64,000 nt of DNA from a bacterium (GCA_037137535.1 JBAXKC010000005.1:38346-102345); one strand, 5' to 3'. Shown: positions 1,671 to 27,138, counted from the first letter of the stretch. Numbers and translations: made by a program. The notes: generated from the sequence alone by a model not told the origin.

Positions 1671-1868
1671 ATGAATAATGAAAGTGATTTAATTGAATAT
1701 ATAGATAAAACTAAGAGATTATTTTATAAACATTTTGATACTGAAGTCGCTTTGTTTCGTAAATTAAATTTAGAAGAATGTGATTATCATGAAAATTTAC
1801 ACTTTGAATTTAAAGAGGATCTTGCTGATTTAACTCTAGAAATGTTCCTGTGCTTACTAAAGCACTAA
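1671..1868 (+). pseudogene. Truncated tandem paralog of the upstream hemerythrin gene (central helices only)
   Basis: The 65-aa ORF aligns ungapped with aa ~50-100 of the 1141..1587 product (YxxK....HFD.E.ALF...NL..C..H...H..FKE). The N-terminal His helix and the C-terminal HxxxxD helix are missing in frame. Out-of-frame remnants resembling the C-terminus (..KNKEIKIN) follow the stop. Confidence 0.45.
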
Positions 1869-2084
1869 GGTTAAATTAAATAGTTTTATATTACTTGAAA
1901 AATCATTTACCTATGTATGATAAGACTTGTATTGAAAAATAAGGAAATTAAAATAAATTTATTTTTATCTCTATGTAAATCTAATGCGTTTGATTATTGG
2001 TTATAAATAAAGTAATATGATACAATCAAGCTATTAATATCAGATTTATTGTATTAAATCTGCCGTTAAATTCAGAAAGGTTTA

Positions 2085-2369
2085 ATGATGAGTGACAATC
2101 AAAATAAAGTCATTTCACTCGCTGGTGCAAGAGAAAAAGATAAAGAAAAGCAATCAGATAAAAGTAATGAAAACAAAGAACCTCAGGTTCATTGTTCATT
2201 TTGTGGACGACCAAATTTTCAGGTTCTAAAAATGATAAAAGGTCCAGGGGTTAATATTTGCTCTGAGTGTGTAATGATTTGTATTCAGTTTTTAATTCTT
2301 GAAGATAGAGTTTCCTCTCCGGAAGTACAAAGGGTTTTAGACCAGTTTTGGCAAGGGTTTAGAAAATAA
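2085..2369 (+). CDS. Standalone ClpX-type C4 zinc-finger (ZBD-like) protein
   Basis: CSFCGRPNFQVLKMIKGPGVNICSECVMIC closely matches the ClpX N-terminal zinc-binding domain (CSFCGK....KLI.GP.V.IC.EC...C). No AAA+ module follows. RBS AGAAAGG lies upstream. Confidence 0.75.
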   Translation: MMSDNQNKVISLAGAREKDKEKQSDKSNENKEPQVHCSFCGRPNFQVLKMIKGPGVNICSECVMICIQFLILEDRVSSPEVQRVLDQFWQGFRK

Positions 2370-4099
2370 TGTCAAAGAGAACATTATCAAAACTTCAAAT
2401 AAGATCAGAGATTTTATCAATATTATCAGTATTTAATAATATTGAAGATACTCCTAAAGAAAAACAGGATGAGGTTCTAAAGTCATTAAAGACCATAGAA
2501 AATAAATCTGATGTATTTGATTTTTTGCTTAAAGAATTGCCTAAATTAAGTATTGAACAAGCTCAAGTTGTAATTTATCTGTTTATTGAATTGGGTTCTT
2601 TGGATGAATTAAAAGAACCGTTATGGGCTTTTATAAAAGATTCTAATTCTTCTGATGAACTTAAAGATCTCGCAGGTATTGCTTTACGTAGTCTTGGTGA
2701 TGTTTCGGATACTCAGGTTTTTTTAAATTATCTTGATGATCCAAAAGCTGTTATTGATAAAGAAACTCAAAAGTTGCTTGAACTTGCAAAAATCAATCCG
2801 GAAGCGCAAATCGATTTTTTTGATTTTTTATTTTCGCTTCCTGAGGAAGAACAACTTTCTCTTATAAGTTCATTAAAAACAGATTATTCAGGTGAATATA
2901 TTGTAAATGTTCTTGTTCCCGCCTTGGAGTCAAACCCTTCGGGCAGAATTAAAGAAGCTTTAATAGAGGCATTGGGTGAAAGTAAGAATGAAGGTGCTGT
3001 TTCAATATTAAATGATATAGTTGATAATTCTACTGATTTGAAATTGAAGAAATTAGCTAAAAAAAATCTGACATTATTAAAAATTTCCGGCATAGATATA
3101 GAAAATAACATAGCTGATAAAAGAGGTGATACTCTTTGTAAGCATACCGATATATATGAATGTTACGCTAGTAATGTTGATGGTGTTGGTAATCAGGGCA
3201 TTATTATAAGTAGAATAAAACCAAATCAAGATATTATGATGTTTACTGTCGTTATAAATGATCTTGAAGGTATTGTTGATTGTTTTGGTTTTAACGGTAT
3301 AAGTAAAACTGATTTTTCGAGAATTATTCATAAATTTCAAGAGAAATCAACACGTCTTTCGGTTTCGCCTGAATATTGCAAGTATAAACTTATACAGGCT
3401 GAAAGAATTAACAAAAAAAATAATTCAAATATTACTTATGAATATTCAGCATGGAAGATATTAACTCATGACTTTTTAGCGTTAGAAGAGCCTGTTGAAA
3501 ATATTGCATTGGCTTGGGGGAATATTAATTATATATTTCAAGGATGTAATCTTTATAATTATCCCGATTTTAAATACTGGTTTTTTGAAGAGTCAGATCA
3601 TCCTAAAATTAAAGAATTTTTAGATAAAATTGTTAATAATATTCTTAAAGATGTGACTTATTATAAAGAAAATATAGATAAGTTGTTTGTATATTTGAAT
3701 AATGAAATAAAATTAATTCTTCCTGAAATTTTTGATGATAAATTAAGGGCTTGTTATAAAAACAGATTACTAAATATCGCATATCTTATGGATTTGCAAG
3801 GATTTAACTCTTTTAGAAATATATCAAGTTCTGTTGCTATTTCACTTGATGCTAATTATAAAGTACCATTATCTGAAAATGTATTTGTTTTTGAATTGAT
3901 GAAAAAAACTGTTAGTGAAGGTTTTTTACGACACAGGCAAAAACTTAAAGATGCTCAGCTAAATTCACAATTTGTAACATCATGGAATATTAAAAAATTG
4001 AAACAAGCTCAAGAACCTTTGCCGGCTTGTGATGATAGTGGAGTTTGCGAGATAATTGACCTTTTATATGAAGAATGGATGTTTAAACCGTCATGTTAG
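2369..4099 (+). CDS. Hypothetical protein, N-terminal helical-repeat (HEAT/ARM-like) region, family unknown
   Basis: Long uninterrupted ORF. Its start shares one nucleotide with the upstream stop (TAATG) and its 3' end overlaps ruvX by 7 nt. No motif I recognise. Confidence 0.6.
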   Translation: MSKRTLSKLQIRSEILSILSVFNNIEDTPKEKQDEVLKSLKTIENKSDVFDFLLKELPKLSIEQAQVVIYLFIELGSLDELKEPLWAFIKDSNSSDELKDLAGIALRSLGDVSDTQVFLNYLDDPKAVIDKETQKLLELAKINPEAQIDFFDFLFSLPEEEQLSLISSLKTDYSGEYIVNVLVPALESNPSGRIKEALIEALGESKNEGAVSILNDIVDNSTDLKLKKLAKKNLTLLKISGIDIENNIADKRGDTLCKHTDIYECYASNVDGVGNQGIIISRIKPNQDIMMFTVVINDLEGIVDCFGFNGISKTDFSRIIHKFQEKSTRLSVSPEYCKYKLIQAERINKKNNSNITYEYSAWKILTHDFLALEEPVENIALAWGNINYIFQGCNLYNYPDFKYWFFEESDHPKIKEFLDKIVNNILKDVTYYKENIDKLFVYLNNEIKLILPEIFDDKLRACYKNRLLNIAYLMDLQGFNSFRNISSSVAISLDANYKVPLSENVFVFELMKKTVSEGFLRHRQKLKDAQLNSQFVTSWNIKKLKQAQEPLPACDDSGVCEIIDLLYEEWMFKPSC

Positions 4100-4530
4100 A
4101 TGAAAGATTTATAGGGCTTGATGTAGGTAATAAGAGAATCGGCGTATCTTTAAGTGATAGGTTGCTTCTTACTGCTCAGCCCCTAAAGACGATTAATAGA
4201 ATGCCTGAAGTTAAGGCAATAGAAGAATTGTCAAAAATAATAAAAGAAAACGGAGTGACAGGTATAGTTGTAGGGCTTCCAAAAAATATGAACGGCTCTA
4301 TAGGTTTTCAAGCTGATAATGTACAAAATTTTGCAGAACTGCTTGAACAAAGTTTTAATCTTGATATAATTTTTGAAGATGAAAGATTATCTAGTAGACA
4401 AGCGGAAAGGTTTTTATCGGAACAAAACGTAAAACCTTCTCGCAATAAAGGGTTAATAGACGTTGCCTCAGCGGCAATAATATTACAATTGTATTTGGAC
4501 AAAAGGAGAATTCAAAATGGAAGATCTTAA
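4093..4530 (+). CDS. ruvX: Putative pre-16S rRNA nuclease / Holliday junction resolvase-like protein YqgF (RuvX)
   Basis: IGLDVGNKRIGVSLSD, GIVVGLPKNMNGS and FEDERLSS(R)QAE are the YqgF/RuvX signature blocks. The size (145 aa) is typical. Confidence 0.9.
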   Translation: MLDERFIGLDVGNKRIGVSLSDRLLLTAQPLKTINRMPEVKAIEELSKIIKENGVTGIVVGLPKNMNGSIGFQADNVQNFAELLEQSFNLDIIFEDERLSSRQAERFLSEQNVKPSRNKGLIDVASAAIILQLYLDKRRIQNGRS

Positions 4531-4995: not shown

Positions 4996-5412
4996 GTGTG
5001 TCTTTTGACAGTAATTTTAGAATATAGAGAAATTCTTTCAACAGGCATAAAAAAAATTGATGACCAACATAAAAAACTATATCAGCTGATAAATGATTTA
5101 TTTACAGCGTGCGTTAATGGTTATGATAAAGAAATGATTTCTACTATTCTTTCCGATCTTGCCGAGTATATTGACGTTCATTTTAAAGATGAAGAAGATA
5201 TAATGCAGTCTGTGGGCTACTCTGATTTTTTAATTCATAAATCGGAACATGATAAATTTTATAGTCTTGTTGTAGGGATTTTGAAAGAGTATGAATTAAC
5301 AGGTGTAACTGATAATTTAATAAATGATACAAAGAAACTTTTAGTAGACTGGCTTTTAAGTCATTTAAATCATTTTGATAAAAAGTTGGCAATTTTCATC
5401 AAATCTCAGTAA
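4996..5412 (+). CDS. Hemerythrin-like metal-binding protein
   Basis: IDDQHKKL, HFKDEEDIM (HxxxE), HKSEHDKF (HxxxH), HLNHFD (HxxxxD). The longest ORF starts at GTG 4996. TTG at 5005 is better spaced (8 nt) from the GAGG RBS. Confidence 0.8.
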   Translation: MCLLTVILEYREILSTGIKKIDDQHKKLYQLINDLFTACVNGYDKEMISTILSDLAEYIDVHFKDEEDIMQSVGYSDFLIHKSEHDKFYSLVVGILKEYELTGVTDNLINDTKKLLVDWLLSHLNHFDKKLAIFIKSQ

Positions 5413-5491: not shown

Positions 5492-5525
5492 AAAAGCTGC
5501 CGATACAAATGGTAGCTTTTTAGTT
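5492..5525. terminator. Putative bidirectional-looking hairpin terminator
   Basis: AAAAGCTGCC-gatacaaat-GGTAGCTTTT (one G-U pair), flanked by a T-run upstream and TTTTTAGTTTT downstream. Confidence 0.5.
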
Positions 5526-5752
5526 TTAGAAGTTGAGAGTTTGTTTTAAGAGAGAAGTTTAGCTTATGGGAAAAAATTGTTTTTTCAATTCATGTTTCAT
5601 ATTTGAAAATATGCTAAATAGCATGTATTTAAGTGCTTTTGGGCATGTAAACAATTGTAAAAAAAAGTATAAATATGAGAGTTTTTTTAACATGTTTTTA
5701 ATTTATATGACTTTTTATTATTACGATAGAATTTGGGCTGAGGTCATAATTA

Positions 5753-7066
5753 ATGGTTAGCAAAATAGATAACTCAAAATTGTTTGAAAAATTTGCTTTG
5801 AAGCCACAGCAACAGCAAGCTCCTGCTCCTGTGACACAGCAGGCTGAAGTTGTTCCTGTTCAGGTTCAAAAGGAAATGGAAGGGGTTCAAGCAAAGACTC
5901 ACGAGCCAAAGCAAGATGAACTTAACATCGGGCATGCATCGGATCACATGGTTTCTAATGATGCTCTTACAAAAATGAAAGTCCAAGTCGAAAAGACATC
6001 AAAGCTACCTGAATACGCTATTAGGGGAATGAAAGGCGATCAGGATGCTAATTTCTATGAGTTTTTAGAATTAGGTAAAGTTCCTTATTTTCTTGGTGGT
6101 GCTGTTTTAACTGCATGTTATGCTGCCGGTGGTAAGGGGGCTGCTCCATTTGTAACAAGAATGGGAGCCGGTGCTGCATTTTTCTATACAGCTGCAATGT
6201 TAGGAAAGAATGCTATTGCTCTTCCTGTTCAGTTATTAAGAGGTATTGATCTTAATCATCCTTACAGAGATATTGTAGATTGTAGAGCAGTAGATGCTCA
6301 AGGTACATCTCCGAAAAAGAAAGAATATCACAAAGTATTTGAAAGTATCGACTTTACAAGATGGGATCTTCTTGAAAATCATGAAAAAGGAGATGTTAAA
6401 AACAACCCAAGGCTTATTAACGCTAAATATGACCGTATCGCTAAGAAAATGGGCATAAAAGAAAAAGACCTTAATGACTCAGATAGCACATTAAGAGCTT
6501 ATATCAAGAAAACACTTGTCATGAGTAAAGCTGCTCAATATATGAGTATAGCTTTATTTGCACCACTAGCTATTGGTGTAGCTAATGTTCGTGAAATGGA
6601 ATCACTTGGTCATAATATGTTTGGAGATATTGCTAAACATCTTGCAAAGCCTAAGGCTGACGCTACTATTGCCTCAACAACAAAGGATGTGTTCAGTATT
6701 ATAAAATCTGCTACAACTGATGTTATTGGTAGATCCTTTAAATCACTATGGACAGGTGAGGGTAATACGCATACTATAAAGGGTGTTAAAAATACAATAG
6801 GAAGCGTGAAAACATCTGACCTCTTTAAGCAAATGACAGGTGGAGAGTTCTTCCAATCATTAAATGGATTGCTTAAGAAACATGGCGGAAAAGCATTAAT
6901 CCTTGCTCCGTTAGTAACATCAGTAGCCGCAAACGCATGGATTTACTTCCACACAAATGCAGGCAAGAAAAAAGTATTACCTGCCGCAGAGTTTGCTATC
7001 GATAAGCAAAGACTTGCTGAACAATCAGCTCAAGGGGACAACACTCAACAAGTTAAGCCACAGTAG
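5753..7066 (+). CDS. Polytopic membrane protein, unknown family (paralogous to N-terminal part of next gene)
   Basis: GAGG RBS about 9 nt upstream. Q/P-rich N-terminus (KPQQQQAPAPVTQQAEVVPVQVQ). Four hydrophobic Gly/Ala-rich segments, e.g. VPYFLGGAVLTACYAAGG, GAGAAFFYTAAMLG, YMSIALFAPLAIGVANV and ALILAPLVTSVAANAWIYF. Confidence 0.65.
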   Translation: MVSKIDNSKLFEKFALKPQQQQAPAPVTQQAEVVPVQVQKEMEGVQAKTHEPKQDELNIGHASDHMVSNDALTKMKVQVEKTSKLPEYAIRGMKGDQDANFYEFLELGKVPYFLGGAVLTACYAAGGKGAAPFVTRMGAGAAFFYTAAMLGKNAIALPVQLLRGIDLNHPYRDIVDCRAVDAQGTSPKKKEYHKVFESIDFTRWDLLENHEKGDVKNNPRLINAKYDRIAKKMGIKEKDLNDSDSTLRAYIKKTLVMSKAAQYMSIALFAPLAIGVANVREMESLGHNMFGDIAKHLAKPKADATIASTTKDVFSIIKSATTDVIGRSFKSLWTGEGNTHTIKGVKNTIGSVKTSDLFKQMTGGEFFQSLNGLLKKHGGKALILAPLVTSVAANAWIYFHTNAGKKKVLPAAEFAIDKQRLAEQSAQGDNTQQVKPQ

Positions 7067-7083
7067 GGTTAGGGGATATTAAA

Positions 7084-9813
7084 ATGGTTAACATTAATCG
7101 AAATCTCACATTTACAAATGCAGACTTGATTAAAAAACAGTTTCAGATGAAGCCGTCTAATCAGCAAGCTCAACCTGCTCCTGTGGTTGAAAATAGTCCG
7201 CAAAAAGCTAATCAGGAATTGATTGCAGATACATTAAAATTAAGAAACGTTGAGCCTGACAAACCAAAAGGTAAAACATTTAACAGAGGTCTTCTTCAGT
7301 GGCCACAAGAAATATATGAAACCAACGTTAAAGGTGCAAAAGTTCTTTGGAAAGCTATGGCTAAAGGCGAAGGCAACGATAAAGATATCGGAAGCCTTAA
7401 CGATTTAGCGTTAGGTTTGGGCAGTTTAGGTATTGCTGCTGCTTTAGCACTTAGACCTAAGGCTTCCCCTGCCGAAAGAGCTATGGAATTTGCCGGTTTT
7501 GGAACATGGTTTGCAGCGCAAGCTATTTGGCCAAAAACTATTCTCGCAGGACCTGTTAAATTTTTTACCGGTGTAGATATTAATAAAACTTATCAGCATA
7601 GTGAAGGCAAAATTAATAGAACGCTTACTGATCCTCAATATATTCCTTGGGATCACTATACTCAAAAAGAATATGATGAAGTTGGTAAAAAATGTCATAT
7701 TCCTGAAAATATCAAAGATAGAAATAAACATGTTCAAAATAAAATCAGACAGGTTGGCGTTCAGTCAAATACTTTATGGATGCTGACAGCAGGTTTTTCA
7801 ACTCCGTTAATTTCCAGTTTATTTGCTGATAGATTAAGACCGGCTGTTGCAGGTGGTCTTGAGATGGTAAATGAAACAAAAAATTCTATGAAGTTATTCG
7901 GATTCAAGAAAACACTTCACGATAGAATTGATAGAGCTCTTCAAAATCTTGAACATAAGATGATTCCTAACGCTACAGGTAACGGATTAGGTTCTGTGGG
8001 TAGAGGTGTTCAAAACTTCTTCATTAGTGCTGATAATATGTTAGGAACTATTAAAAAGCCTATTTTATCCACAGTTCAACATCTTGTCGGCTATAAGCCT
8101 GAAGAAGCATTAAAAGGTTTTGATTCTAAAGCTGAATCTATTTCTAAGAAAACTGCTGAGCAAATGGAAAAATTACTTGAGTCTAATCCTAATAAAGAGA
8201 AAATGACAAGTGAATTAGCAAATATGTTTAAAGATTCTAGTGAATTAGGTTCATTTAGACATACTGACTTATTTAACAGTATTGTTAAAACTGTATCTTC
8301 TAAAATGGATGAAATTCCTGGAAAAGATGCGACTAAACAAGCAGAGCTTAAAAAACAAATCGTTAGTGTTGTTTCATCGGCTAAGAAATTTGTTGAGATG
8401 GCAAAAGATGTTGAAGGCTATGCTAAAACAACACTCGGTAATTACGCTGATACAACTATAGCTCACGCTTGGGATCAAGCTCCTAGAGAAATGATGGATG
8501 CTTTAAGACTTCCTAATGCTGTAAGAGTTAAATTACAAAGTGTTAACGGTCAAACTCCTAATGGTATAAGTGCAGTTGCTCTTGAAATTTCTGATTATAT
8601 TCATAAACTTCCTGCTGCTGAAAGAGAAGAAGTTAAAATTGCATTAGATAATGTTATTCATAAGCACGATAGTAAGTTATCAGGAATGGCTGAGAGAGTA
8701 GGTGTTGTCTTTACTGAAGGAGGAGCTAAAGAGACTGAAAATGGTGTAATGCAAAAATTAAGAGCATACTCTAAAGACCTTAGCACTCAACTTTATGATA
8801 GTGATGATTTTAAAACAGCAAATATTTATATGGATAATCTGAGTAATATGGTCAGAGATCGTATTATGAATACAAAAAATTCCTTCCATAAAATGCCTGT
8901 GTTATTTGAAGCTCATACAAAAGAAGTTGAATTAATTGCTGAGTATAATAAAAAGAATCCGACTAAAGCTATTGATCTTAAAAATGGCGTGACTAATATA
9001 GTAATGGAATTGTCAAGTAAACCTAAGGAAGCACTTAACGATCATGAAAAAACATTACTTGAGGGTCTAACTAAATCAATGAAGTTTAAGAGTACTTTTG
9101 ATCCGCATAACTTAATGACAGTTGACAAAGGTGTAAGTTTAGATGAATTCTTAAATAAATGCAGAGCGATTTATGGAAGTAATCCTGCAACAGAAGCTAA
9201 AGGCACTATAAATGAGATGTTAAATCAATTATTTGTGTCAATGTATAAAATTGAGGATACAGGTAAGGATCTCAGTAAATGGACAGAGGCAGCTCTTACT
9301 GATTTATTAAAAGGTGATAATCAATTAGCAAAACAATTAAAATCTGCAAGTGGTGATGACCTTAAACATATGCTTGAGGCTAATGATCACCAGTTAGAAA
9401 AAACGATTAATTCTCATTTGGGTGAATTATTTAATCAAGCTAAGTCAACAATGACAGAAAAAGGTTTAATATCACTTACTGAAGATTCAATTAAAGCTAT
9501 ATTTAATGAAACCTTTAATAAAGCGGGTATTGATGTTTCTCATTCGTTAAAAACACAAGCATTTATTGAAGAAAAAGCTGATGCTCTTGCTCCAAAACTT
9601 AAATCAGCTGGAGCTTGGTTAGGTAAAGCTCTTGATAAATTTATCGCAGATGCAGCAGGTGAGACTGTACTTTACAGAGGTTGGTTGACAAAAGTCGGTA
9701 GTGCATTCGCTGTTCTTACAGGTGTAACATTAATCGCTTCATCAATGATGGGCAAGAAAAACAAATATAATCCGGGTGTCTATGAGGTAAGGGAGACCAA
9801 GAAATATGAATAA
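7084..9813 (+). CDS. Large membrane protein, unknown family (N-terminal domain paralogous to 5753..7066; long helical region; C-terminal TM anchor)
   Basis: AGGGGA RBS. N-terminus MKPSNQQAQPAPVV. TM segments LALGLGSLGIAAALAL, FAGFGTWFAAQAIW, LWMLTAGFSTPLISSLFA and a C-terminal VGSAFAVLTGVTLIASSMMG. Motifs G(I/V)D(L/I)N, W-D and YD..(A/G)KK are shared with the upstream gene. Confidence 0.65.
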   Translation: MVNINRNLTFTNADLIKKQFQMKPSNQQAQPAPVVENSPQKANQELIADTLKLRNVEPDKPKGKTFNRGLLQWPQEIYETNVKGAKVLWKAMAKGEGNDKDIGSLNDLALGLGSLGIAAALALRPKASPAERAMEFAGFGTWFAAQAIWPKTILAGPVKFFTGVDINKTYQHSEGKINRTLTDPQYIPWDHYTQKEYDEVGKKCHIPENIKDRNKHVQNKIRQVGVQSNTLWMLTAGFSTPLISSLFADRLRPAVAGGLEMVNETKNSMKLFGFKKTLHDRIDRALQNLEHKMIPNATGNGLGSVGRGVQNFFISADNMLGTIKKPILSTVQHLVGYKPEEALKGFDSKAESISKKTAEQMEKLLESNPNKEKMTSELANMFKDSSELGSFRHTDLFNSIVKTVSSKMDEIPGKDATKQAELKKQIVSVVSSAKKFVEMAKDVEGYAKTTLGNYADTTIAHAWDQAPREMMDALRLPNAVRVKLQSVNGQTPNGISAVALEISDYIHKLPAAEREEVKIALDNVIHKHDSKLSGMAERVGVVFTEGGAKETENGVMQKLRAYSKDLSTQLYDSDDFKTANIYMDNLSNMVRDRIMNTKNSFHKMPVLFEAHTKEVELIAEYNKKNPTKAIDLKNGVTNIVMELSSKPKEALNDHEKTLLEGLTKSMKFKSTFDPHNLMTVDKGVSLDEFLNKCRAIYGSNPATEAKGTINEMLNQLFVSMYKIEDTGKDLSKWTEAALTDLLKGDNQLAKQLKSASGDDLKHMLEANDHQLEKTINSHLGELFNQAKSTMTEKGLISLTEDSIKAIFNETFNKAGIDVSHSLKTQAFIEEKADALAPKLKSAGAWLGKALDKFIADAAGETVLYRGWLTKVGSAFAVLTGVTLIASSMMGKKNKYNPGVYEVRETKKYE

Positions 9814-11773
9814 CGTTCAAAATAACAATAATCAGTTTATTGTAAAACTTCCTTTGAATAAAACTAATCAGCCGTTACCTCAACAGCCTGTGTATGTTGC
9901 TCCTGCGGCTACACATGTGAATCAGCAGCCAAATCAGGTAGTTTATGCAAATAATATTCCTAATATTTTCTTTAAATCACCACAACCTCAAAAAGCTGTT
10001 GTTGCTCCACAAGTAGCTCCACAGCAACAAGCTAATACTCAATCAATGTCGTCAGATTGGGTTTCAAGTTGGATAAAAGTTAAAATGCCTGCAGCGGCTA
10101 ATGCTTCAACAGCAGTAGCAAAGGCTGCTCCGGTTCAGAAAATATCTGATGTGAAACTTGATCCGAATTTTCATTGGAAAAACGACCTTAGGCAGTTATT
10201 CCACGAAAATAAAGCTTGTATTATGGCAGTGTTAATGAATACATTCAATGCTAAAGATAAAGATGGTGACAGATTAATTCAACCGTCTAAAGGTGAAGAA
10301 TTCGGCACTTGGTATAATGGTATCGAGCGTCTTGATGAGATGAAAGCATTAGGTATTAATACATTACACATTCTTCCTCCAAACCCACCCGGTGCAAAAG
10401 GTGCTATGGGGAACAACGGTTCAAGATATGCTGTTGATGATTATACTAAATTAGATCCAATGCTTGATGATCCAAAATGTCCTCTTGGCGTGGAAGATGA
10501 AGCAAAATTATTCATTCAGGAAGCTCATAAACGTGGTATCAGAGTAATGTTTGACCTTGCAAGCTGTTTCTCAATCGATCAGTTTGAAAAATCTGCTGCT
10601 AATCAAGATAAAAATCCTGCAACTCCAAAAGTAGCTGTAAATCCTGACGGTACACCGGCTATTCCTCAAGGTTGGGAAGACATTAGAATGATGGATCCTT
10701 GGGAAGATAAAGATAAGAGAATTTTACACAAAGGCTTGATGGATTATCATAAAAAATTCATTGATTTGGCACAAAGAATTGGTGTTGATGGTATCAGAGC
10801 TGACGTTGCAAGAGCGAAACCTGTTGAATTCTGGAATGAATTAATTGCATATTCCAGAAGTAAAGATCCAAACTTCTGCTGGTTAGCTGAAAGCTATTGT
10901 TATGAAGATGCCTCACCAATGCAAAACGTACCTGCTGATAGACCTGAAGAGCTGTTAAAAGTTGGTTTCGATTCATACTATGGTCAAGATCACTTATTCC
11001 CATTATGGAAAAACAGTAAAGATTTCCATGACAATATGCTTCTAAACCTTGATCTTTCACATAAAGTAGGGCCTAATAAGTCTGTAATCGGTTCAATGCA
11101 TACCCATGATGATAGAAGTCCTATGTCAAACGGTGGCGCTCCATACTGTTGTTTAACAGCAGGCGCTCAACTTACATTACCGATGACTAATCCATACTTT
11201 ACAATCGGTTTTGAATCAGGTGACAGATATTTATATCCATACGATGGCAAGCCTGTTCAAGGTTGGGCAAGAACAGACTCTAAAACCTATGTAACTCATA
11301 GTGAGTTTATCGACATCTTTAATACGTCAGATAAACCGCATGGCGATAATCCTGAAATCGGCCAATATATGACTGATATGACAAAAGTTAGAAAGCAATA
11401 TGAAGATGTTATTACCAAAGGTTCTTACATTCCGTTAAAAACTACTAATAAAGAAGATTTAATTATCGGTTATGCAAGACACTATAACGGTAAAACCTTA
11501 CTTGCTATTGCTAACAAAGATGTAAATGCTGTTCAGCAAGGAAAAGTGAAAGTACCAACTTTAAAAGAAGGACAAGTTCTTAAAGATCTTTCACCTGCTT
11601 ATGGTGCACCAAGTAATTATGTCGCTAAAAACGGAGAAGTTGACGTAGAACTTGGACCAGCTAGATTCCATCTTTTTGAAATTGATACACCTGAAATAGA
11701 AAAAGCTGCTGATGGCGTATATTCTCAAAACCTTGATTTATCTATGTATGAACAAACTCCAATAAAAGATTAA
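9806..11773 (+). CDS. Glycoside hydrolase family 13 (alpha-amylase superfamily) protein with about 110-aa Q/P-rich N-terminal extension
   Basis: GH13 conserved regions: GINTLHILPP, VDGIRADVARAK (region II, nucleophile Asp), CWLAESY (region III Glu), SMHTHDDRS (region IV HD). The start overlaps the upstream stop by 8 nt (ATGAATAA). No signal peptide is visible. Confidence 0.8.
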   Translation: MNNVQNNNNQFIVKLPLNKTNQPLPQQPVYVAPAATHVNQQPNQVVYANNIPNIFFKSPQPQKAVVAPQVAPQQQANTQSMSSDWVSSWIKVKMPAAANASTAVAKAAPVQKISDVKLDPNFHWKNDLRQLFHENKACIMAVLMNTFNAKDKDGDRLIQPSKGEEFGTWYNGIERLDEMKALGINTLHILPPNPPGAKGAMGNNGSRYAVDDYTKLDPMLDDPKCPLGVEDEAKLFIQEAHKRGIRVMFDLASCFSIDQFEKSAANQDKNPATPKVAVNPDGTPAIPQGWEDIRMMDPWEDKDKRILHKGLMDYHKKFIDLAQRIGVDGIRADVARAKPVEFWNELIAYSRSKDPNFCWLAESYCYEDASPMQNVPADRPEELLKVGFDSYYGQDHLFPLWKNSKDFHDNMLLNLDLSHKVGPNKSVIGSMHTHDDRSPMSNGGAPYCCLTAGAQLTLPMTNPYFTIGFESGDRYLYPYDGKPVQGWARTDSKTYVTHSEFIDIFNTSDKPHGDNPEIGQYMTDMTKVRKQYEDVITKGSYIPLKTTNKEDLIIGYARHYNGKTLLAIANKDVNAVQQGKVKVPTLKEGQVLKDLSPAYGAPSNYVAKNGEVDVELGPARFHLFEIDTPEIEKAADGVYSQNLDLSMYEQTPIKD

Positions 11774-11801
11774 TCTAGTAAAATAACTAAATTAATTATA
11801 A

Positions 11802-11836
11802 AAATCCCTTACATTATTTAAGATGTAAGGGATTTT
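11802..11836. terminator. Rho-independent terminator after GH13 gene
   Basis: 13-bp perfect stem AAATCCCTTACAT / ATGTAAGGGATTT with an 8-nt loop and a trailing T-run. Confidence 0.8.
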
Positions 11837-12126
11837 AGCTATAAAGACGGGCATTTAAACCCTAATGCCAGCTTGCCGTTTTATGACAAAGTCCGACTAG
11901 AATAAAAACGCCCTATATTTAATAACCCTGCATAAGGTAATTCCATAAAAAAGATAAATCGCAACAGTATCGTAACATTGACTTCACGTCTTGTATTAAC
12001 TTATCTTTTCTTATCCTTTATAAATATATCATTATGTTATATAAACAACATCGGTTGTTCGTTCTACAACAATTGTCTATAATTACAAATATATTACCAT
12101 AATATTGTTGTACAACAATTGGCTTA

Positions 12127-14049
12127 TTATGTTAATTTAGCTATTTTTTCCGCTAGCTGAGCAATTTCCTCACAGTTATCAGCAGAAACATTTATAAGTT
12201 TAGTTATTTCAGTCATTTCTTTACCAGCTTCATTCATGTTAGTTTCAAGTTTGTCTGAAATTTTATTCATTAACTCTACTTGCTTCTGAATTATGGATTC
12301 ACTAGATTTAGTTGAATCTACAACTTCTTTAGATTGTTCAGAAAGTTTTCTTACTTCATCCGCTACAATTGCAAAGCCACGTCCATGATCACCCGCACGA
12401 GCTGCTTCAATAGAAGCATTAAGTGAGAGTAAATTTGTCATACCTGCTATATTTACAATTTCTTTTGATGCTTCAATAAATTCATTAACGCTTTGTTCAA
12501 CACTATAAATACTATTTTTTAAATCACTTGAGGTTTTAATAAGATTAATTATTTGTTCTTTTATTTGTTCCGTATTTGCACTATTTTCTTTATTTGAATT
12601 AGCGACATTTAATACTTTTTCTATAATCTTATCCACATTTGTTTTAAGAATAGTTGATGATTCCTCTTTTTCTGCATTAATTTCCTGTAATTCTGCTGTC
12701 ATTTGTTGTAGTTTACAATTTTGTGCATTTATCATGTCATGTTCTATTTTAAGCTCTTTTTTATTATAAAATATGCAGTTTTTTAAATGATTAGTATTAT
12801 TAAATATAGAAAGGGCCATATTTTTACAATTGCCATATCCGCAAGCATTACAGTTTATGTTTTTATCTTTTTCAGTATATTTATGCAGTTTTATAAATAC
12901 TTCATTCAATTCGCTTTGATTTGGAATTAATATTTTTACATCAGAAGATTTATTTTTGTATTTTCTAATAAAATCATTCAAGTCTATTTCTTTGTTAAAC
13001 ATATCAAATAAAGGATAGGTATTTTTATTAAATATATTCTTTGAGCTTTTTTCTTTGATTTTTTGTTTTTTTGCTAAATTCATTTTATTATCAAGATCAT
13101 CTATGTGACGATCTTTACATGTCCCTGTCCCCAAATTGCAGCCGAAAGAACAGTTTAAAATATCTACAATAAGAGGCAAATTTTTATTTTCTTTTACTCT
13201 TTTATTATATGAATCAAGGTAACTATATGCATGCTCATTACCTTCTACCTGTCTTACCCAGGCATCAGGTATATGGAATTCTACGTTTTCTCTAAGACCA
13301 CCTGGTCTTGAGAAGGTTAAGCCTAATCCACATCCGATATCATCAAAGTCTGTTTCTTCATAGCTATTTAGGTTTATATTATTTCTTTTTAAATAATTCT
13401 CTATTTTTTTATAGGTAATATTATATGAAATATAACCATTAGTATTGGGATCATTAAATTCATCTGTTTTTCCAAGACAAGGTGATAAAAAGGCTATGTT
13501 ATCATTTATTTTTTTATAATTTTTCATGTAAATAGCAGTACAGAGAGCAGGACTATGAACAGGTGAGGTTTTTTCGATTAATTCAGGTTTGTATTTTTCT
13601 ATATAATTAACAATTGCAGGACAAGGCTGTGCAATGACAGAGTCTAAATTTTTAGTAGTAATCGCTTTGATATAAGCCCATGTACATAGATCAGCACCAA
13701 ATGACACATCATATATTAAATTTATACCTTTGCTTTTAAAAAATGAAAAAAGTTTTTTGTAATTGTCAAAATTCAACCTTGCTGCAGGAGCTGCAACAAT
13801 GGATAATTTTTTACCTTTTTTTAAATCTTCAAAAAATAATTCTGTATCATCATTATATCTACGAGCATTATGATCACATTCCTCTATACAATGTCCACAA
13901 TTTATACATTTATAAGGATCAACTTTAATTTTATTATCGTTGTTTTCGTCTAAATAGGCTATATTGGCGTATATTGCAGGACAACCATTTATGCATTTAT
14001 TGCAACCGACACAATTCTCTTCAATTGTGTAAACAATATTATTCTTCAT
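12127..14049 (-). CDS. Soluble methyl-accepting chemotaxis protein with N-terminal 2x[4Fe-4S] ferredoxin + [FeFe]-hydrogenase-like H-domain sensor
   Basis: Ferredoxin motifs [12 protein letters not shown] and [12 protein letters not shown]-cluster-like motifs AQPCPA (L1), [10 protein letters not shown] (L2) and [13 protein letters not shown] (L3). An extra Cys cluster, CNACGYGNC...C. C-terminal MCP tip motif [35 protein letters not shown]. No TM helix. Confidence 0.85.
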
Positions 14050-14261: not shown

Positions 14262-14567
14262 ATGAATGTTTCAAGAATTGATGGTTTTAAAGAAGAAATG
14301 CATAATGCTACTGAATCAATGAAAACTAGAATATCAGAAGTTCAAGGTAAAGTTGAAGAGAATATTAATAAAGCTATGGTTGTTACTGCTGACAGTTTAG
14401 AAAATACGGCAAAAAAATTTAACGGTACTGCTGAAGTTTTACGAGAAAAAAATGCTCAAACTATTAAAAATGATGTATCTGAGCTTGTTAAAAAATATCC
14501 TGCTTATACTTTTGTTGGTGCTATGGTTATAGGCTTTATTTTTGGCAAAATGCTTTCAAAACGATAG
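14262..14567 (+). CDS. DUF883/ElaB-YqjD-like tail-anchored membrane protein
   Basis: GAGG RBS 7 nt upstream of the ATG at 14262 (the ORF extends to GTG 14232). Hydrophilic helical N-terminus, then KKYPAYTFVGAMVIGFIFGKMLSKR, which resembles the YqjD C-terminus (ENPWTGVGIGAAIGVVLGVLLSRR). Confidence 0.6.
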   Translation: MNVSRIDGFKEEMHNATESMKTRISEVQGKVEENINKAMVVTADSLENTAKKFNGTAEVLREKNAQTIKNDVSELVKKYPAYTFVGAMVIGFIFGKMLSKR

Positions 14568-14580
14568 GAGGATTGTAGCT

Positions 14581-14922
14581 TTGTTTAAAAATGAACCAAA
14601 TTTTAAAGAGAAAAATAATATTCCGCATCTAATTAAAGAAATAGTTAATGAATTTTTAAATTTGACATTAAAGCACATAAGTTTAATAAAATTTGATATA
14701 AAACATGATATTAGAGTTGCAATAAGTCATATATTATTAGGTCTTTTATGCATTTTTATGGGATTTTGCGGACTTATTTTTCTTGGGTTTTTCTTTATTC
14801 TGATGCTGACTAAAGCTTTACCGCTATGGTTGGCTACTTTGTTGGTAGCGTTATTGTATTTTGTCATTTCTATAATTTTGCTGGCTTTTGCAATGAATAA
14901 AATTAACATTGAAAAATTTTAG
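14581..14922 (+). CDS. YqjE-like (holin-X/DUF1469-type) two-TM membrane protein
   Basis: AGGAGG sits about 9 nt upstream of an in-frame TTG at 14581 (the ORF is open from 14542). Amphipathic N-terminus followed by two long hydrophobic helices. The position between two DUF883-like genes mirrors the E. coli yqjD-yqjE-yqjK order. Confidence 0.5.
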   Translation: MFKNEPNFKEKNNIPHLIKEIVNEFLNLTLKHISLIKFDIKHDIRVAISHILLGLLCIFMGFCGLIFLGFFFILMLTKALPLWLATLLVALLYFVISIILLAFAMNKINIEKF

Positions 14923-14945
14923 CATAATATATTTGGAGATTTAAA

Positions 14946-15251
14946 ATGGATAAAAGACATGAACTTCTAAACGATATTGAGCGTTCGCAGGAGCGCATTC
15001 AAGATGATATCTCTCATATTGGAGATATTATTCATAATAAAACTAATATAGCGGATGCAATAAAAAAACATCCGTTTCAATCTCTTGCTATTGGAACAGC
15101 AGCAGGTTTTGCATTGGCATTTATTTCTACCCCTATTGGAAGAGTAGTTATTAAATCACTTATAGGTTCTGCTGTTGCTACTGCCGGTGCTCATTATTCC
15201 AAAAAGGGAATAGATTATTTACAATTATTAAAAGAGAAAAAAGTTGTTTAA
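14946..15251 (+). CDS. DUF883-like / YqjK-position small membrane protein
   Basis: GGAGA RBS. Helical N-terminus, then KKHPFQSLAIGTAAGFALAFI, a TM segment of the ElaB/YqjD type. Confidence 0.55.
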   Translation: MDKRHELLNDIERSQERIQDDISHIGDIIHNKTNIADAIKKHPFQSLAIGTAAGFALAFISTPIGRVVIKSLIGSAVATAGAHYSKKGIDYLQLLKEKKVV

Positions 15252-15979
15252 AGTGGTTTCTTTTTAGGTATTCCTGCCTTACGTGGATAATGAGAGGAAG
15301 TGTTCCCGACTTTCTTTATTATTAGTATATTTCTATCAGTATTTTCTATTGAATAATCTATTTGTTTTACAGACTCGCCTTTGAGGGTCTGTAAAGCTTT
15401 TTGGGCTTCGTTAAGTTCTTCTTGAGCTTCTTTTGCTTTATATGCTGCAAATATACCGTCCTTTTTAACAAATGGCAGGCAATATTCGCATAGTATATTA
15501 AGTCGACTTACTGCTCTTGCAACAGAAATATCAAATTTTTCTCTCATTTCGACAGTATGTGCCAGATCTTCCGCTCTTCCGTTTACTGTTTTAATTCGGT
15601 CTGTTAATTCTAATATTTCTGCCAATTCTTTAATAAAGTTAATTTTTTTACCAACTGAATCCACAGCAGTTAAAGTCCATGTGTCAAATAAAATAATCAG
15701 CGGAACTCCAGGAAAACCACCACCACAGCCAATATCAATAATAGAAAGGTTCTTTTTTTCTCTAATTTCTTCATCAAGATATAAGGAAATAGAGTCTGCG
15801 AAATGCTTTGTCATAACTGTTTCATAGCTTGCATCGCTGACTATATTTGTATGTTCGTTAAACTTATTTAAAAATTCAAAATATTTTCCGAAAAGTTCAA
15901 TTTGCTTTTCGTTTAATTCAATATCAAATTCTTTTATTTTATTTATTAAAAGTTCCATAATTTTATCGTCCTTTAGCAT
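15248..15979 (-). CDS. rsmG: 16S rRNA (guanine527-N7)-methyltransferase RsmG (GidB)
   Basis: SAM-binding motif IIDIGCGGGFPGVPL, the N-terminal L...Q...F..Y...L..WN-like region, and ARAV. Typical length. Alternative start at 15958 (MELLINK). Confidence 0.9.
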   Translation of the reverse strand: MLKDDKIMELLINKIKEFDIELNEKQIELFGKYFEFLNKFNEHTNIVSDASYETVMTKHFADSISLYLDEEIREKKNLSIIDIGCGGGFPGVPLIILFDTWTLTAVDSVGKKINFIKELAEILELTDRIKTVNGRAEDLAHTVEMREKFDISVARAVSRLNILCEYCLPFVKKDGIFAAYKAKEAQEELNEAQKALQTLKGESVKQIDYSIENTDRNILIIKKVGNTSSHYPRKAGIPKKKPL

Positions 15980-18650
15980 TCTTTATTCGTTCCATAATAA
16001 TATTAAAACGAACTTCTCCTATTTCATTCATTATTTGTCTTATTTTTCGGTCAATTTTTTCAGAGCTGTCTGTAGAAATTGTAGCTCCTATGGTTTTTCT
16101 TGAGAGGATAAAGTTTTTTAGAGATTTTTCATAATCTCTTACATTTAAGAAAAAATCGCCAAGATCAAATAAGGAACCTGCAACAAGATAAATATCTTTA
16201 GAGCTTTTTGCTGATTCTAGTCCCATATTCAAATAATCAAGGGCTTTATCATTATTACCTTGGTAAATATATATATTTGCAAGTTTATTAATTGTTTTAT
16301 ATTCACCATCAAAGTTTTTATTTATTCTGTCAACATTTAATGATTTCTGATAAAAGTTTAGTGCATTATCAAAGTTGTTATTTTCTTCATAAATAGCCGC
16401 AATATTTGCTAATGCTTCCGCTAAGAAAATATTTTGTTCAATATTTTGAAATTCAGCACATTTTTTATAATATTCCAAAGCTTTTGAAATATTATTCATA
16501 TCATCATAAACCAGAGCCAGTTTGAATGCAGTAAGAGCATATTGTTCTTTACTTTGAGCTGTTTCATTTTTTTCTGCAAATTGAAGTGATTTTAAATAAT
16601 AAGTTATAGCAAGTTCAGCATTTTTCCTGTAATCATAAATCTCCGCTAATCCTGTGTATGCCTCTGATAGTATTTCATTATTCAGATTATTATTTTTGTC
16701 ATTAATAACTCTTTTAAAGGCTTTTAGTGCTTCGTCATGTTTATAACTTTCGCTATAGGCATTACCAAGCATATTATTTACTTTATTTGCGGTTATATAG
16801 TCATTTTCTTGTTGATAAAAGTCTATTGACTCATTATAATAAACCGCTGCATCTTCATATTTATGCATTTCGGCTAAAATATCAGCTATTTGTATAGATA
16901 TTTGAGCAACTTGTTTTTTATCTCCTAATGATTTTGAAAGATTTAATGCTTTTTTATATTGATAAAAAGCTAAATCAAGTTTATGTGCTTTTTGAAACTC
17001 ATCTGCTTTTTCAAGTAATTCTTTTCTTTCTTGTGTAGGTGAAATCTTTTCTTCTTGTTCGGTTGTTTGATCATTTTCTTGAAAAAATATTGGAATAATT
17101 AATTTTGACGGGTCAGTTTTTTCTCTTGATAAATCTTCATTAATAGATTCTTCTTCTAATAATTTTTTTTCATCATCAGAAAGTTCAAAACCTAAATCAT
17201 CGTCATCCATGTCTTGAATGGTTTCGATTAATTTCTTTTTGAAATTATTGTCTATATTTACTGTTTCGTTGTCTTCAAAGTTTAAGACACTTTCTTCATT
17301 TGTATTTTCAATGTTTTTACTTTGTTGTTTCTCTTGTTTATTGGGATTTTTCTGTGCAGGAGGCATTTGTGATTTTTTAAAATCATAAAATTGATTTGGA
17401 GTTGATGCCAATATATTAAAATTGGTTTTAAATTTCGTGCTTATTTTATAGTGATAATATTGTTCTGTGTGTAAAAGTTTTCGAGAAAGAGTTATTTCTC
17501 TTTCATTTATTGGTTTTGGTATTTGATTTGAGTAAAATTCATGTAAGAAATTATGAATTTTACCTTTTTCATTTGTGGCAATATGTTTATATATAAGATT
17601 TTTAATCATAGGCTTAATGTAGTAATTACCGTTATTATCGGTTACTATCATAAGCTCTTTGAGTTTATTTATTTTGTGTTCTAAATCACCTTCCGCATTA
17701 AGTTTTTGCAGTAGGCTTATTTTTACGGGGTGTCTTAATGCTGATAAAAACCTGCATAATTTTATACAATCTTGCGGAATAATATCATATATTTTTTCTA
17801 TAATATATTCTTCAAAACTTTCTTTTCTTGACGAATATTCTCCAATTAAATCAAATGGTGTTATTTTTAAGTTTATTACACCATTTATAAACCATAATAA
17901 ACTTTCAGGATAACCTCTAGTTATTTCAAAGGCCTGATAAAGTGTGTTTTCATAGCCTATTAAATTATGATCTTTAAATATTTGCAACGCATGGTTATCA
18001 TCAAGGCCGCCCAGCTTTATGCGAGAACTGTTTTTCTCGTTAAGGTTAAGTCCTGATACCAATAATTTTTGCGAAGAAATAATTAACTTAATATTTGGAA
18101 ATTTAAGTAAATAGTTCAAAAACTTTGCTATTTCTTCATCGGCAAAGTTGAAATTTTTGTCGGTTAAAAACTCTAATGAGTCTATAGCTATAATTAACGG
18201 TCTTTTTAAGTTTTTTATATACTCTATAACTTTTCTATCAATGGATAAAGTTGATGAAGCTTTTATATCACGGGCAAGCTCTGTGTTTTTTTTGAAGAAT
18301 TTATTCAAATAAGAATATAAAGAAACGATTATATCATCGAGATTAGTTATTTGTGAGCATTCATAATAAAAACGTAAAATAGAATCATCAAGGCTAAGAA
18401 AAAGTGATTTTATAAATTCTGTTTTTCCTACTCCATAAAATCCATTTATAACTAAAGCTTTTCTCATCTCTGAATTTATTGTTCTGATGGCTTCTTTAAA
18501 GTGTTCATTTCGATTTATTAAAATATAAGGTGTGTTTTTATTGATATGTTTTACTTTTGCTTTGTTTAAAACGTCTAAAATTCCGTCAAATTCTTGTATT
18601 GACGGGCTAATATTGTCGGTTAATGCAGTTTTAAAGAAAGATTTTCTCAT
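15963..18650 (-). CDS. STAND/AAA-type P-loop NTPase with acidic linker and C-terminal TPR array
   Basis: Walker A INGFYGVGKTEF; Walker B-like PLIIAIDSLEF. Acidic low-complexity linker (QDMDDDDLGFELSDDEKKLLEEE). About 8 TPR-like repeats follow (A..YY..S..........A...LG..Y). Confidence 0.7.
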   Translation of the reverse strand: MRKSFFKTALTDNISPSIQEFDGILDVLNKAKVKHINKNTPYILINRNEHFKEAIRTINSEMRKALVINGFYGVGKTEFIKSLFLSLDDSILRFYYECSQITNLDDIIVSLYSYLNKFFKKNTELARDIKASSTLSIDRKVIEYIKNLKRPLIIAIDSLEFLTDKNFNFADEEIAKFLNYLLKFPNIKLIISSQKLLVSGLNLNEKNSSRIKLGGLDDNHALQIFKDHNLIGYENTLYQAFEITRGYPESLLWFINGVINLKITPFDLIGEYSSRKESFEEYIIEKIYDIIPQDCIKLCRFLSALRHPVKISLLQKLNAEGDLEHKINKLKELMIVTDNNGNYYIKPMIKNLIYKHIATNEKGKIHNFLHEFYSNQIPKPINEREITLSRKLLHTEQYYHYKISTKFKTNFNILASTPNQFYDFKKSQMPPAQKNPNKQEKQQSKNIENTNEESVLNFEDNETVNIDNNFKKKLIETIQDMDDDDLGFELSDDEKKLLEEESINEDLSREKTDPSKLIIPIFFQENDQTTEQEEKISPTQERKELLEKADEFQKAHKLDLAFYQYKKALNLSKSLGDKKQVAQISIQIADILAEMHKYEDAAVYYNESIDFYQQENDYITANKVNNMLGNAYSESYKHDEALKAFKRVINDKNNNLNNEILSEAYTGLAEIYDYRKNAELAITYYLKSLQFAEKNETAQSKEQYALTAFKLALVYDDMNNISKALEYYKKCAEFQNIEQNIFLAEALANIAAIYEENNNFDNALNFYQKSLNVDRINKNFDGEYKTINKLANIYIYQGNNDKALDYLNMGLESAKSSKDIYLVAGSLFDLGDFFLNVRDYEKSLKNFILSRKTIGATISTDSSEKIDRKIRQIMNEIGEVRFNIIMERIKNAKGR

Positions 18651-26433: not shown

Positions 26434-27138
26434 TATAATTCCTAGAAAATCATACAAAACTTTTAATTATTTTTATTGTATTATCCACCCGCAATTACTT
26501 TAAGTTTAAAAATTACAAGTAATTATGGGAGTGGTTAATGTTTAAATACGTATTTCTTAATACGTCAAAAATATCTTCAATTACTAATATACTATAACCT
26601 GATAATAATGTACTAATTCATTAAGCTAATATTAAGACTGTATCAATATAGAATGAATTTATTAATGTCATTTACTCGTATCTCTACTGAATAATTATCT
26701 TTATGCCGTATGTAATTATTACAAAGAATGCCTTTTAGTTTTTAAATAGTTATTTTTAGTATGGTCGAACTGATAAGTTTTCGTTAAAGAATGTTTTTTT
26801 AAACTATCCATGCAAATAGGTAATAGTGGTAATGCTATAAGTCGTTTGTAAGCTTCATAATCATTTGTAAATAAATGAAACATGTTAATACCTTTGAGTT
26901 TACTAAATTAAAACTTTATTACGAGGTTAGAAAAATAAATAAATGTTAAATAAGGTATTAAAAAAAATAAATGAAGTCAGTTGTAGATAAATGTAATCTT
27001 TGCTTGATATATCGATTACACATTTAGCATGTTTCTAAAAATAGTGCTAAAACTAAATATTTAGTTATAGGGATGGTAGTTTTCAGGATGAGGAACCAGG
27101 TTATTCATTCTGGTAGAAAACAAAGGGAGGAAACTAGT

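Follow-up and report, generated by a model that had tools for sequence, protein, structure and literature searches.

We found that three adjacent genes at positions 5,753 to 11,773 of a 64,000-nucleotide (nt) stretch of bacterial DNA (GCA_037137535.1 JBAXKC010000005.1:38346-102345; hereafter the window) appear to form a conserved and undescribed functional module. The window comes from Candidatus Melainabacteria and has a GC content of 31%. The first two genes, g1 and g2, encode membrane-anchored paralogues without known relatives, and the third, g3, encodes an enzyme of glycoside hydrolase family 13 (GH13) with intact catalytic residues. The three genes keep their order deep into the lineage, and genes of alpha-glucan metabolism recur beside them. 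The reading that we favor, and to which we give a probability of roughly 40%, is that membrane-anchored g1 and g2 hold g3, acting as a cytoplasmic alpha-1,4-glucan enzyme, at the membrane.

Layout of the operon

A preliminary description of the window, made from its sequence alone, had reported three tightly linked and co-directional genes, and all of its particulars (the open reading frames [ORFs], the 17-nt gap with AGGGGA between g1 and g2, the 8-nt overlap between g2 and g3, and every motif quoted) are present in the sequence and its translations. The features of the transcription unit are the following:

4996-5412: ORF of the hemerythrin gene that precedes g1 (Pfam match)
5492-5520, + strand: terminator-like hairpin ending the upstream hemerythrin gene, 5′ boundary of the transcription unit (consensus scan)
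5753-7066, + strand: g1, ORF of 437 amino acids (aa), smaller paralogue of the novel membrane-anchored family
7071-7076, + strand: AGGGGA, ribosome-binding site of g2 within the g1-g2 spacer (sequence)
7084-9813, + strand: g2, ORF of 909 aa, larger paralogue
9790-9795, + strand: AGGGAG, likely ribosome-binding site of g3, ten bases 5′ of its start (sequence)
9806-9813, + strand: ATGAATAA, 8-nt overlap of the g2 stop and the g3 start (sequence)
9806-11773, + strand: g3, ORF of 655 aa, GH13 enzyme of an unassigned clade
about 11796-11844, + strand: intrinsic-terminator hairpin 3′ of g3 (RNA fold and sequence)

The stop codon of g1 (TAG, 7064-7066) is followed by the 17-nt spacer, in which AGGGGA lies 7 nt 5′ of the g2 ATG. 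The sequence at the second junction indicates that the g2/g3 overlap is a translational coupling and that the trio is one translationally coupled operon. The hairpin after g3 has a folding energy of −20.6 kcal/mol (z = −6.4; none of 200 shuffled sequences was equally stable), and its core stem of 15 bp (11801-11815/11822-11836) stands between an A-tract and a U-tract. A consensus scan found no + strand terminator within g1-g2-g3, in agreement with the earlier statement that a strong terminator follows only the third gene. No sigma-70-type promoter was found on the + strand in 5521-5752, 5′ of g1, by a consensus scan whose total count of sites was not above that of shuffled sequences.

The gene that converges on the terminator of the trio (12127-14049, − strand) encodes a 640-aa protein in which 4Fe-4S ferredoxin domains and an [FeFe]-hydrogenase large-subunit-like domain are fused to a methyl-accepting chemotaxis signaling domain; it is a possible redox- or H2-sensing chemoreceptor.

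Conservation of the trio

In a scan of one genome per GTDB species, a relative of g1 was found in 346 genomes, and the named relatives are Candidatus Melainabacteria, mostly of the order Gastranaerophilales. We fetched the loci of 80 of these species-level genomes for an analysis of synteny. In 72 of them the three genes stand with order and orientation unchanged; in the remaining eight, the locus is cut by a contig end or lies in a frameshifted assembly. In all 10 loci for which genes were called independently, each of the two junctions consists of an overlap or of a gap no longer than 30 nt. Six contigs found through homologues of g2 carry the same three genes in completely different flanks, with identities to the window proteins of 51-75% for g3, 34-59% for g1, and 26-50% for g2. 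By these values g3 appears to be the slowest evolving of the three, which fits an enzyme with adaptor subunits.

The most divergent relatives of g1 returned by an exhaustive HMMER search (loci L089, with 44% GC, and L090, with 52% GC) again belong to the same trio, in which stop and start codons overlap. Divergent homologues of g3, when taken as the starting point, also lead to the trio (L091 and L092). The co-occurrence in relatives, which the preliminary description had proposed as a check, thus holds both for the species loci and for every divergent relative examined. In the databases the proteins of the trio are all named "hypothetical protein" or a generic glycosidase, and in the literature on Melainabacteria we found no paper describing this operon or this GH13 clade.

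Paralogy and architecture of g1 and g2

The resemblance between g1 and g2, noted at first by eye, passes formal comparison. The two proteins align by BLASTP at 21% identity over 271 columns (E = 5e-6; residues 7-272 of g1 with residues 12-242 of g2), in an alignment that pairs QQQQAPAPV with QQAQPAPV, RGIDLN with TGVDIN, RWDLL with IPWDHY, and YDRIAKKMGI with YDEVGKKCHI. Profile-profile comparison with hhalign, using an alignment of 60 sequences for g1 and of 9 for g2, gives a probability of 97.1% (E = 7.4e-11, 170 columns), and g1 proteins match the g2 proteins of other genomes. On this evidence g1 and g2 are paralogues of a lineage-restricted family. Their parts are the following:

g1, aa 1-84: variable polar head
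g1, aa 85-280: conserved core (family alignments)
g1, aa 105-125 and 136-158: Gly/Ala-rich helices H1 and H2
g1, aa 160-255: beta-hairpin/short-helix domain
g1, aa 258-280: H3
g1, aa 281-378: variable helical region
g1, aa 379-400 (nt 6887-6952, + strand): C-terminal anchor H4 (hydrophobicity)
g2, aa 1-60: polar head
g2, aa 61-270: N-terminal domain homologous to the g1 core (H1, 103-123; H2, 134-156; H3, 229-249)
g2, aa 271-865: helical region of about 600 aa, poorly conserved (conservation profile)
g2, aa 868-890 (nt 9685-9753, + strand): C-terminal anchor H4 (hydrophobicity)

Four hydrophobic segments thus lie at equivalent positions in both families, and the C-terminal one is the strongest. 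The preliminary description had given a C-terminal segment to g2 only; H4, with a hydrophobic stretch at aa 381-399, is the most hydrophobic segment of g1. In a simple sum on the Hessa scale, the family medians for H4 of both proteins and for H3 of g2 are about 2.4-2.8 kcal/mol (about 2.4 for the C-terminal anchor), which approaches autonomous membrane insertion, and the C-terminal membrane anchor is therefore solid. The Gly/Ala-rich H1 and H2 are marginally hydrophobic (family medians, 4-8 kcal/mol), and g3, used as a negative control, has zero such segments. H1-H3 may be true spans stabilized by packing, re-entrant hairpins, or buried helices. Both proteins had been called polytopic: The C-terminal anchor is convincing, but H1 and H2 are too weakly hydrophobic to establish a polytopic topology.

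We found no relatives of g1 and g2 among known families, as the preliminary description had anticipated. Searches of both proteins against Pfam and NCBIfam gave nothing under E = 0.3, and no consistent family emerged from a Pfam scan of every member of the two alignments or, for g1 and g2, from the trio of the complete MEL.A1 genome. The g1 profile has no significant match among all PDB sequences (best E, 0.46). The AlphaFold2 model of g1, built from the 60-sequence alignment, has a mean predicted local distance difference test score (pLDDT) of 71.8 and a predicted template modeling score of 0.67; it is a bundle of long helices in which a beta-hairpin and short helices separate H2 from H3, and residues 1-58 form a disordered head. 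Foldseek against the PDB returned for this model a best E of 0.59, with TM-scores <0.2. The AlphaFold2 model of g2 is all-helical and, at a pLDDT of 51.7, too poor for fold inference; for this low-confidence model the best E against the PDB was 0.07, again with TM-scores <0.2.

An exhaustive HMMER search of the g1 profile against 1.84 billion representative proteins found only 240 clusters at E ≤ 0.001, and the relatives of g1 therefore form a small, lineage-restricted superfamily. Both g1 and g2 represent new families, with a predicted fold that is unmatched. The preliminary description had named three outcomes that would speak against it, namely, a characterized family with a role unrelated to glucans for g1 and g2, a loss of synteny with the GH13 gene, and a paralogy without statistical significance; what we see is no family, kept synteny, and significant paralogy.

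A single g1-like protein of unusual length (P0265, 631 aa; 1763-3658 of locus L015) is matched by the g1 profile in two stretches. It is a possible tandem g1 fusion or an assembly artefact, the contig being 3.8 kb long.

g3 as a GH13 enzyme

The third protein has the following parts:

g3, aa 1-125 (nt 9806-10180, + strand): Q/P-rich head, non-conserved
g3, aa 126-643: catalytic barrel plus C-domain
g3, D333 (nt 10802-10804, + strand): nucleophile
g3, E362 (nt 10889-10891, + strand): acid/base
g3, D435 (nt 11108-11110, + strand): transition-state stabilizer

The motifs GIRADVARAK, LAESY, and HTHDD, in which a full GH13 signature had been recognized, are present. D333, E362, H434, D435, and D436 are invariant in an alignment of seven orthologues, and the catalytic D333, E362, and D435 are kept in the distant L089 and L090. 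The Pfam family PF00128 matches g3 with 33 bits (cutoff, 22), aligned over aa 161-308 only, and 26 GH13 chains in the PDB match at E ≤ 1e-5. g3 is a GH13 enzyme with a complete set of catalytic residues, and we predict it to be catalytically competent. No hydrophobic segment was found in g3 on either of two scales, N-terminal or otherwise, and g3 therefore has no Sec-type signal peptide, as had been stated.

Among solved structures, the best match of the g3 profile is the maltosyltransferase of Thermotoga maritima (1GJU/1GJW; E = 5.6e-21), with three aligned stretches over the barrel and the C-domain. Neither enzyme has a signal peptide, and both act on alpha-1,4-glucans, g3 by prediction. However, the two align in partial stretches only, g3 has a disordered head of 60-150 aa, and its conserved sequence region VII (CSR-VII) has G-F-E or G-Y-Q in place of the G-Q-E of the maltosyltransferase. 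We know of no membrane partners of the Thermotoga enzyme.

The second and third best matches are AmyB of T. neapolitana (4GKL; 5.9e-19) and the Lactobacillus plantarum protein 3DHU (7.5e-15), which together define GH13_48, as Haloarcula MalA defines GH13_49 (PMC11239784). Members of GH13_48 are recognized by a Cys immediately preceding the nucleophile (a minority have Ala, Val, or Leu there), by GQ ending CSR-VII, by NH ending CSR-I, and by L-[DN] ending CSR-V (PMC11239784). The residue before the nucleophile of g3 is in keeping with this group: It is Ala in the window and its close relatives (GIRAD) and Cys in L089 and L090 (GFRCD). The other regions differ. CSR-I of the g3 family ends in S-C and not in NH, reading DL[AP]SC[FAM]S without the His, as in GlgE (the Asn-His is typical of GH13 but not obligatory); there is no GQ at the end of CSR-VII; and T-H-D stands in place of N-H-D. 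The putative CSR-V, placed by HMMER alignments only, has the sequence DIRM-M-D in the window, and relatives show DIRM-[FL]-x. We rejected an assignment to GH13_48 because g3 has neither NH in CSR-I nor GQ in CSR-VII.

GH13_49, the group of Haloarcula japonica MalA, is marked by [WY]-[GA] ending CSR-II, Asp before the acid/base, and Glu in CSR-IV. It was likewise rejected: CSR-II of g3 ends in R-A, Ala precedes E362, and CSR-IV is S-[MF]-[HA]-T-H-D. The NCBIfam model MalA is the best NCBIfam match of g3, yet with 48 bits against a cutoff of 875. Since g3 departs from the markers of both GH13_48 and GH13_49, it constitutes an unassigned GH13 clade.

The fourth relative is GlgE (GH13_3; 3ZSS and 4U2Y). 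Both enzymes are cytoplasmic and lack the usual NH of CSR-I, and their likeness runs through regions I-III: DLxSCxSxD in g3 corresponds to DFALQCSPD in GlgE, LAESYT to LAEAFT, and RADVARAKPVEFW to RVDNPHTKPVAFW. With E = 8e-12 over no more than about 190 residues, this match is weaker than the others; a separate hit to GLGE_C is faint (E = 0.14), and the disordered head of g3 takes the place of the ordered N-terminal domains of GlgE. On these comparisons the g3 clade appears to lie near or between GH13_48, the Thermotoga maltosyltransferase, and GlgE. The enzymes nearest to it are intracellular and either transfer maltosyl units on alpha-1,4-glucans or release them, as published descriptions (PMC11239784; PMC11046441) and, for the Thermotoga enzyme, its known activity indicate.

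N-terminal heads

All three proteins begin with a polar, low-complexity head of 45-150 aa, presumably disordered (pLDDT <50 for the heads in the models of both g1 and g2), and this head is the conserved trait. The preliminary description had called the heads Q/P-rich. In the window this is so: Q and P make up a fraction of 0.19 of the head of g1, 0.17 of g2, and 0.24 of g3, against 0.06-0.09 in the remainder of the proteins. As a family trait it fails, with family-wide medians of 0.05, 0.13, and 0.14, respectively; Q/P richness is local to the lineage of the window genome. The heads are not alignable between lineages, and their composition tracks the GC content of the genome: Gut lineages have N/T/K-rich heads, and lineages of 44-52% GC have P/A/S-rich ones. 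A conserved Q/P-rich targeting module is therefore rejected in the form in which it was proposed, since neither composition nor sequence is conserved, though disordered heads are always there.

The families of g1, g2, and g3 each have their own short motif at the extreme N terminus. In the gut clade (L022-L088), however, the unrelated g2 and g3 share a start of the form M-x(1-5)-NL[ILM], present in 61% of g2 and 51% of g3 proteins, against 1% of g1 proteins and 2% of 666 flanking ORFs. Examples are MTTNLIQNYI for g2 and MINSTNLLxLKL for g3 (see, for instance, 8986-11577 and 11580-13313 of L033). The motif is absent from the lineage of the window and from high-GC lineages. Possible explanations are a docking or recognition peptide common to the two proteins and a clade-specific convergence.

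Neighboring genes across lineages

Genes of alpha-glucan metabolism adjoin the trio in several lineages. In L090 a GlgA-like glycogen synthase of 838 aa, nearly twice the usual length (14409-16925), overlaps the end of g3 by 4 nt and extends the operon. A giant GH13 protein of 1200-1470 aa, weakly similar to TreY and neopullulanase, adjoins the trio in seven loci (L003, 12890-17062; L013; L014; L020; L009; L016; L012) and in L092 (8983-15482). Its profile matches, TreY/cyclomaltodextrinase-like, are confined to the N-terminal part, and it is unrelated to g3; the copy in L003 (1390 aa) was considered as a paralogue of g3 and rejected, having no BLASTP similarity to it. In L092, a genome of Candidatus Adamsella, the giant GH13 is followed by a 782-aa TreZ/GlgB-like gene. 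The link of the trio to alpha-glucans, first suggested by g3 itself, thus gains independent support from GlgA-like, TreY-like, and TreZ/GlgB-like neighbors.

A different context is found in the gut clade, where in 50 of the 80 species loci the trio stands directly 3′ of a string of genes on the same strand (e.g., L053, 5176-7848; L004, 3916-6631). The string comprises KdsD (with SIS and CBS domains), a KdsC-like phosphatase, QueD/PTPS, and BacA/UppP, the last about 83 nt 5′ of g1. The adjacency to BacA belongs to this one clade of related genomes; since it is absent from the window and from environmental lineages, it may reflect no more than inheritance of a gene order.

Beside the trio lie hook or rod genes in three loci (L006, L090, and L091) and FliW/CsrA in one (L089). 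A link to flagellar or type III export was rejected, as tblastn searches with these genes brought up no additional instance in the 80 species loci, and there is therefore no enrichment.

An ADP-ribosyltransferase exoenzyme-type protein of 485 aa is encoded about 3 kb 5′ of the trio, on the opposite strand, in L042 (3243-4700, − strand) and in 23 other loci of the gut clade.

Proposed mechanism and alternatives

In the reading that we favor, g1 and g2 would form a pseudo-symmetric hetero-oligomer with its C-terminal anchors in the cytoplasmic membrane. The Gly/Ala-rich helices would be embedded or re-entrant, and the conserved N-proximal domains of both proteins, with the long helical arm of g2, would face the cytoplasm. 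To this scaffold g3 would be recruited, possibly through its flexible head, and would work on the inner side of the membrane, with glycogen or malto-oligosaccharides as its substrates and in concert with the neighboring glycogen and trehalose enzymes where these are present. In this model we infer the physical association, the topology, the substrate, and the direction of the reaction.

Several points weigh against this reading. We know of no other case in which a membrane scaffold exclusively serves a cytoplasmic GH13 enzyme. The topology is ambiguous: All loops of g1 and g2 are K/R-rich, and H1 and H2 are too weakly hydrophobic for confident spans. If H3 does span the membrane, the 600-aa helical region of g2 would be periplasmic, a situation that favors export of a glucan. 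The BacA/UppP-Kds string is an envelope context and not a storage context, and sequence alone does not reveal the substrate specificity of g3. A GH13-fold protein is known as the obligate partner of a membrane protein in the heteromeric amino-acid transporters, in which SLC3 proteins (rBAT, 4F2hc) associate with SLC7 (PMC11239784). However, SLC3 proteins are extracellular and non-enzymatic and have a span of their own, whereas g3 has no span and an intact catalytic triad, and g1 and g2 are unrelated to SLC7.

The principal alternative is that the trio exports an alpha-glucan, g3 elongating or trimming an alpha-1,4-glucan in the cytoplasm in the manner of GlgE or the maltosyltransferase and the g1/g2 hetero-oligomer serving as the inner-membrane conduit, with the helical region of g2 extending into the periplasm and a surface or capsular glucan as the product. 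With the H1-H2 hairpin and H3 as true spans, the whole stretch from H3 to H4, 100 aa long in g1 and 600 aa in g2, would be periplasmic, and the Lys-rich tail after H4 fits a C terminus in the cytoplasm. The GlgE-like motifs of g3 and the location of the trio directly after BacA/UppP and Kdo-pathway genes are in keeping with this. So is the analogy of the mycobacterial capsular glucan and of the WecP/WaaL-dependent glucan of Aeromonas, in which a cytoplasmic glucan made by GH13 or GT5 enzymes must cross the membrane (PMC11046441). In mycobacteria the transporter is still unidentified, and in Aeromonas a glycogen-like glucan leaves the cell by undecaprenyl-phosphate-dependent machinery (PMC11046441), although this route uses the O-antigen machinery, which is not part of the trio. 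On the other hand, the conserved trio contains no energy-coupling component (ATPase, Wzx/Wzy, or synthase-type glycosyltransferase), the hydrophobicity of H1-H3 is marginal, the adjacency to BacA is limited to one clade, and the literature that we found reports no extracellular alpha-glucan in Melainabacteria. We regard export as unlikely, if worth serious attention. That g1 and g2 are a new machinery that moves a cytoplasmic glycogen-like alpha-glucan across the inner membrane, or tethers it there, and is fed by a GlgE/maltosyltransferase-like g3, seems to us distinctly doubtful.

Operons that join a cytoplasmic GH13 enzyme to sugar transporters are common, and the trio could be an uptake module, g1/g2 being a novel malto-oligosaccharide or trehalose permease and g3 breaking down the sugar as it leaves the transporter. 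The g3 relatives AmyB and 3DHU are maltogenic amylases that work inside the cell (PMC11239784), and Melainabacteria are sugar fermenters with predicted use of starch and glycogen (PMC3787301). But g1 and g2 resemble no transporter family in sequence or fold; they have at most four weak spans per subunit, with no binding protein and no ATPase; a helical domain of 600 aa would be unexpected in a permease; and the GlgA-like and TreY/TreZ-like neighbors point to an internal glucan metabolism. This we consider very improbable.

We give similarly little credence to the suggestion that the genes are merely co-expressed, with g1 and g2 in a membrane role unrelated to glucans (envelope organization, for example) and g3 sharing their promoter. 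No carbohydrate-related domain occurs in g1 or g2, and nothing detectable links them to glucans; yet lineages ranging from 31% to 52% GC have preserved gene order, orientation, and coupled junctions amid changing flanks, and such persistence is rare for functionally unrelated genes.

Disordered N-terminal heads are a general feature of type III substrates, and closely spaced Gly/Ala-rich hydrophobic helices resemble the hairpins of translocators and Inc-type proteins. Non-classical secretion, in which the heads would be export signals, g3 a secreted amylase, and g1/g2 a translocon- or holin-like pair or flagellar type III substrates, nevertheless finds little credit with us, whatever the shared start of gut-clade g2 and g3 and the nearby flagellar genes may lend it: The flagellar adjacency concerns only three to four of about 95 loci and none of the 80 species loci, Pfam scans gave no flagellin or type III family match, the shared start is missing from the lineage of the window and from high-GC lineages, and the nearest relatives of g3 are intracellular enzymes.

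Other genes in the window

The remainder of the window is ordinary chromosome, with dapB-asd-dapA, polA, uvrA, gidB, and the like. We note several genes in passing. Type I secretion components lie at 39026-41140 (− strand), 41383-42729 (+ strand), and 61732-63864 (− strand); they encode, in this order, an ABC exporter that includes a C39 peptidase domain, an outer-membrane efflux protein resembling TolC, and a protein of 710 aa that carries calcium-binding RTX repeats. A 659-aa protein (27073-29052, + strand) carries S-layer-homology (SLH) domains, by which proteins of the cyanobacterial lineage are typically anchored to the outer membrane, and an 895-aa STAND-type NTPase (15963-18650, − strand) has a long TPR array (AAA_22/nSTAND6 plus TPR_12). 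A 579-aa protein of the endonuclease/exonuclease/phosphatase family with a weak match to an intein-splicing domain (49319-51058, + strand) abuts polA (51058-53934) from upstream. Finally, a 576-aa protein with HEAT repeats and a weak match to DUF7401 (2369-4099, + strand) overlaps the next ORF (4093-4530) by 7 nt.

Implications for Melainabacteria

Melainabacteria are the non-photosynthetic sister lineage of Cyanobacteria and are common in human and animal gut communities. A trio that, judged by the relatives of g1, extends to at least 346 species-level genomes, and for two-thirds of whose proteins neither a relative nor a known fold could be detected, probably belongs to the core physiology of these bacteria, and it leaves an annotation gap in every genome that carries it. 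The g3 clade extends GH13 by a group that appears to lie between GH13_48, the Thermotoga maltosyltransferase, and GlgE. Taken as a whole, the trio is a GH13 enzyme operonically coupled to membrane proteins, and the mechanism proposed for it is inferential. If g1 and g2 do hold g3 in a membrane-bound alpha-glucan complex, this would be a new spatial organization of glycogen and maltodextrin metabolism. If the trio instead exports a glucan, it would be the first candidate for a transport step that is unidentified in other bacteria; and as a translocon it would be the first dedicated alpha-glucan translocon to be identified, the component described as missing in mycobacteria (PMC11046441).

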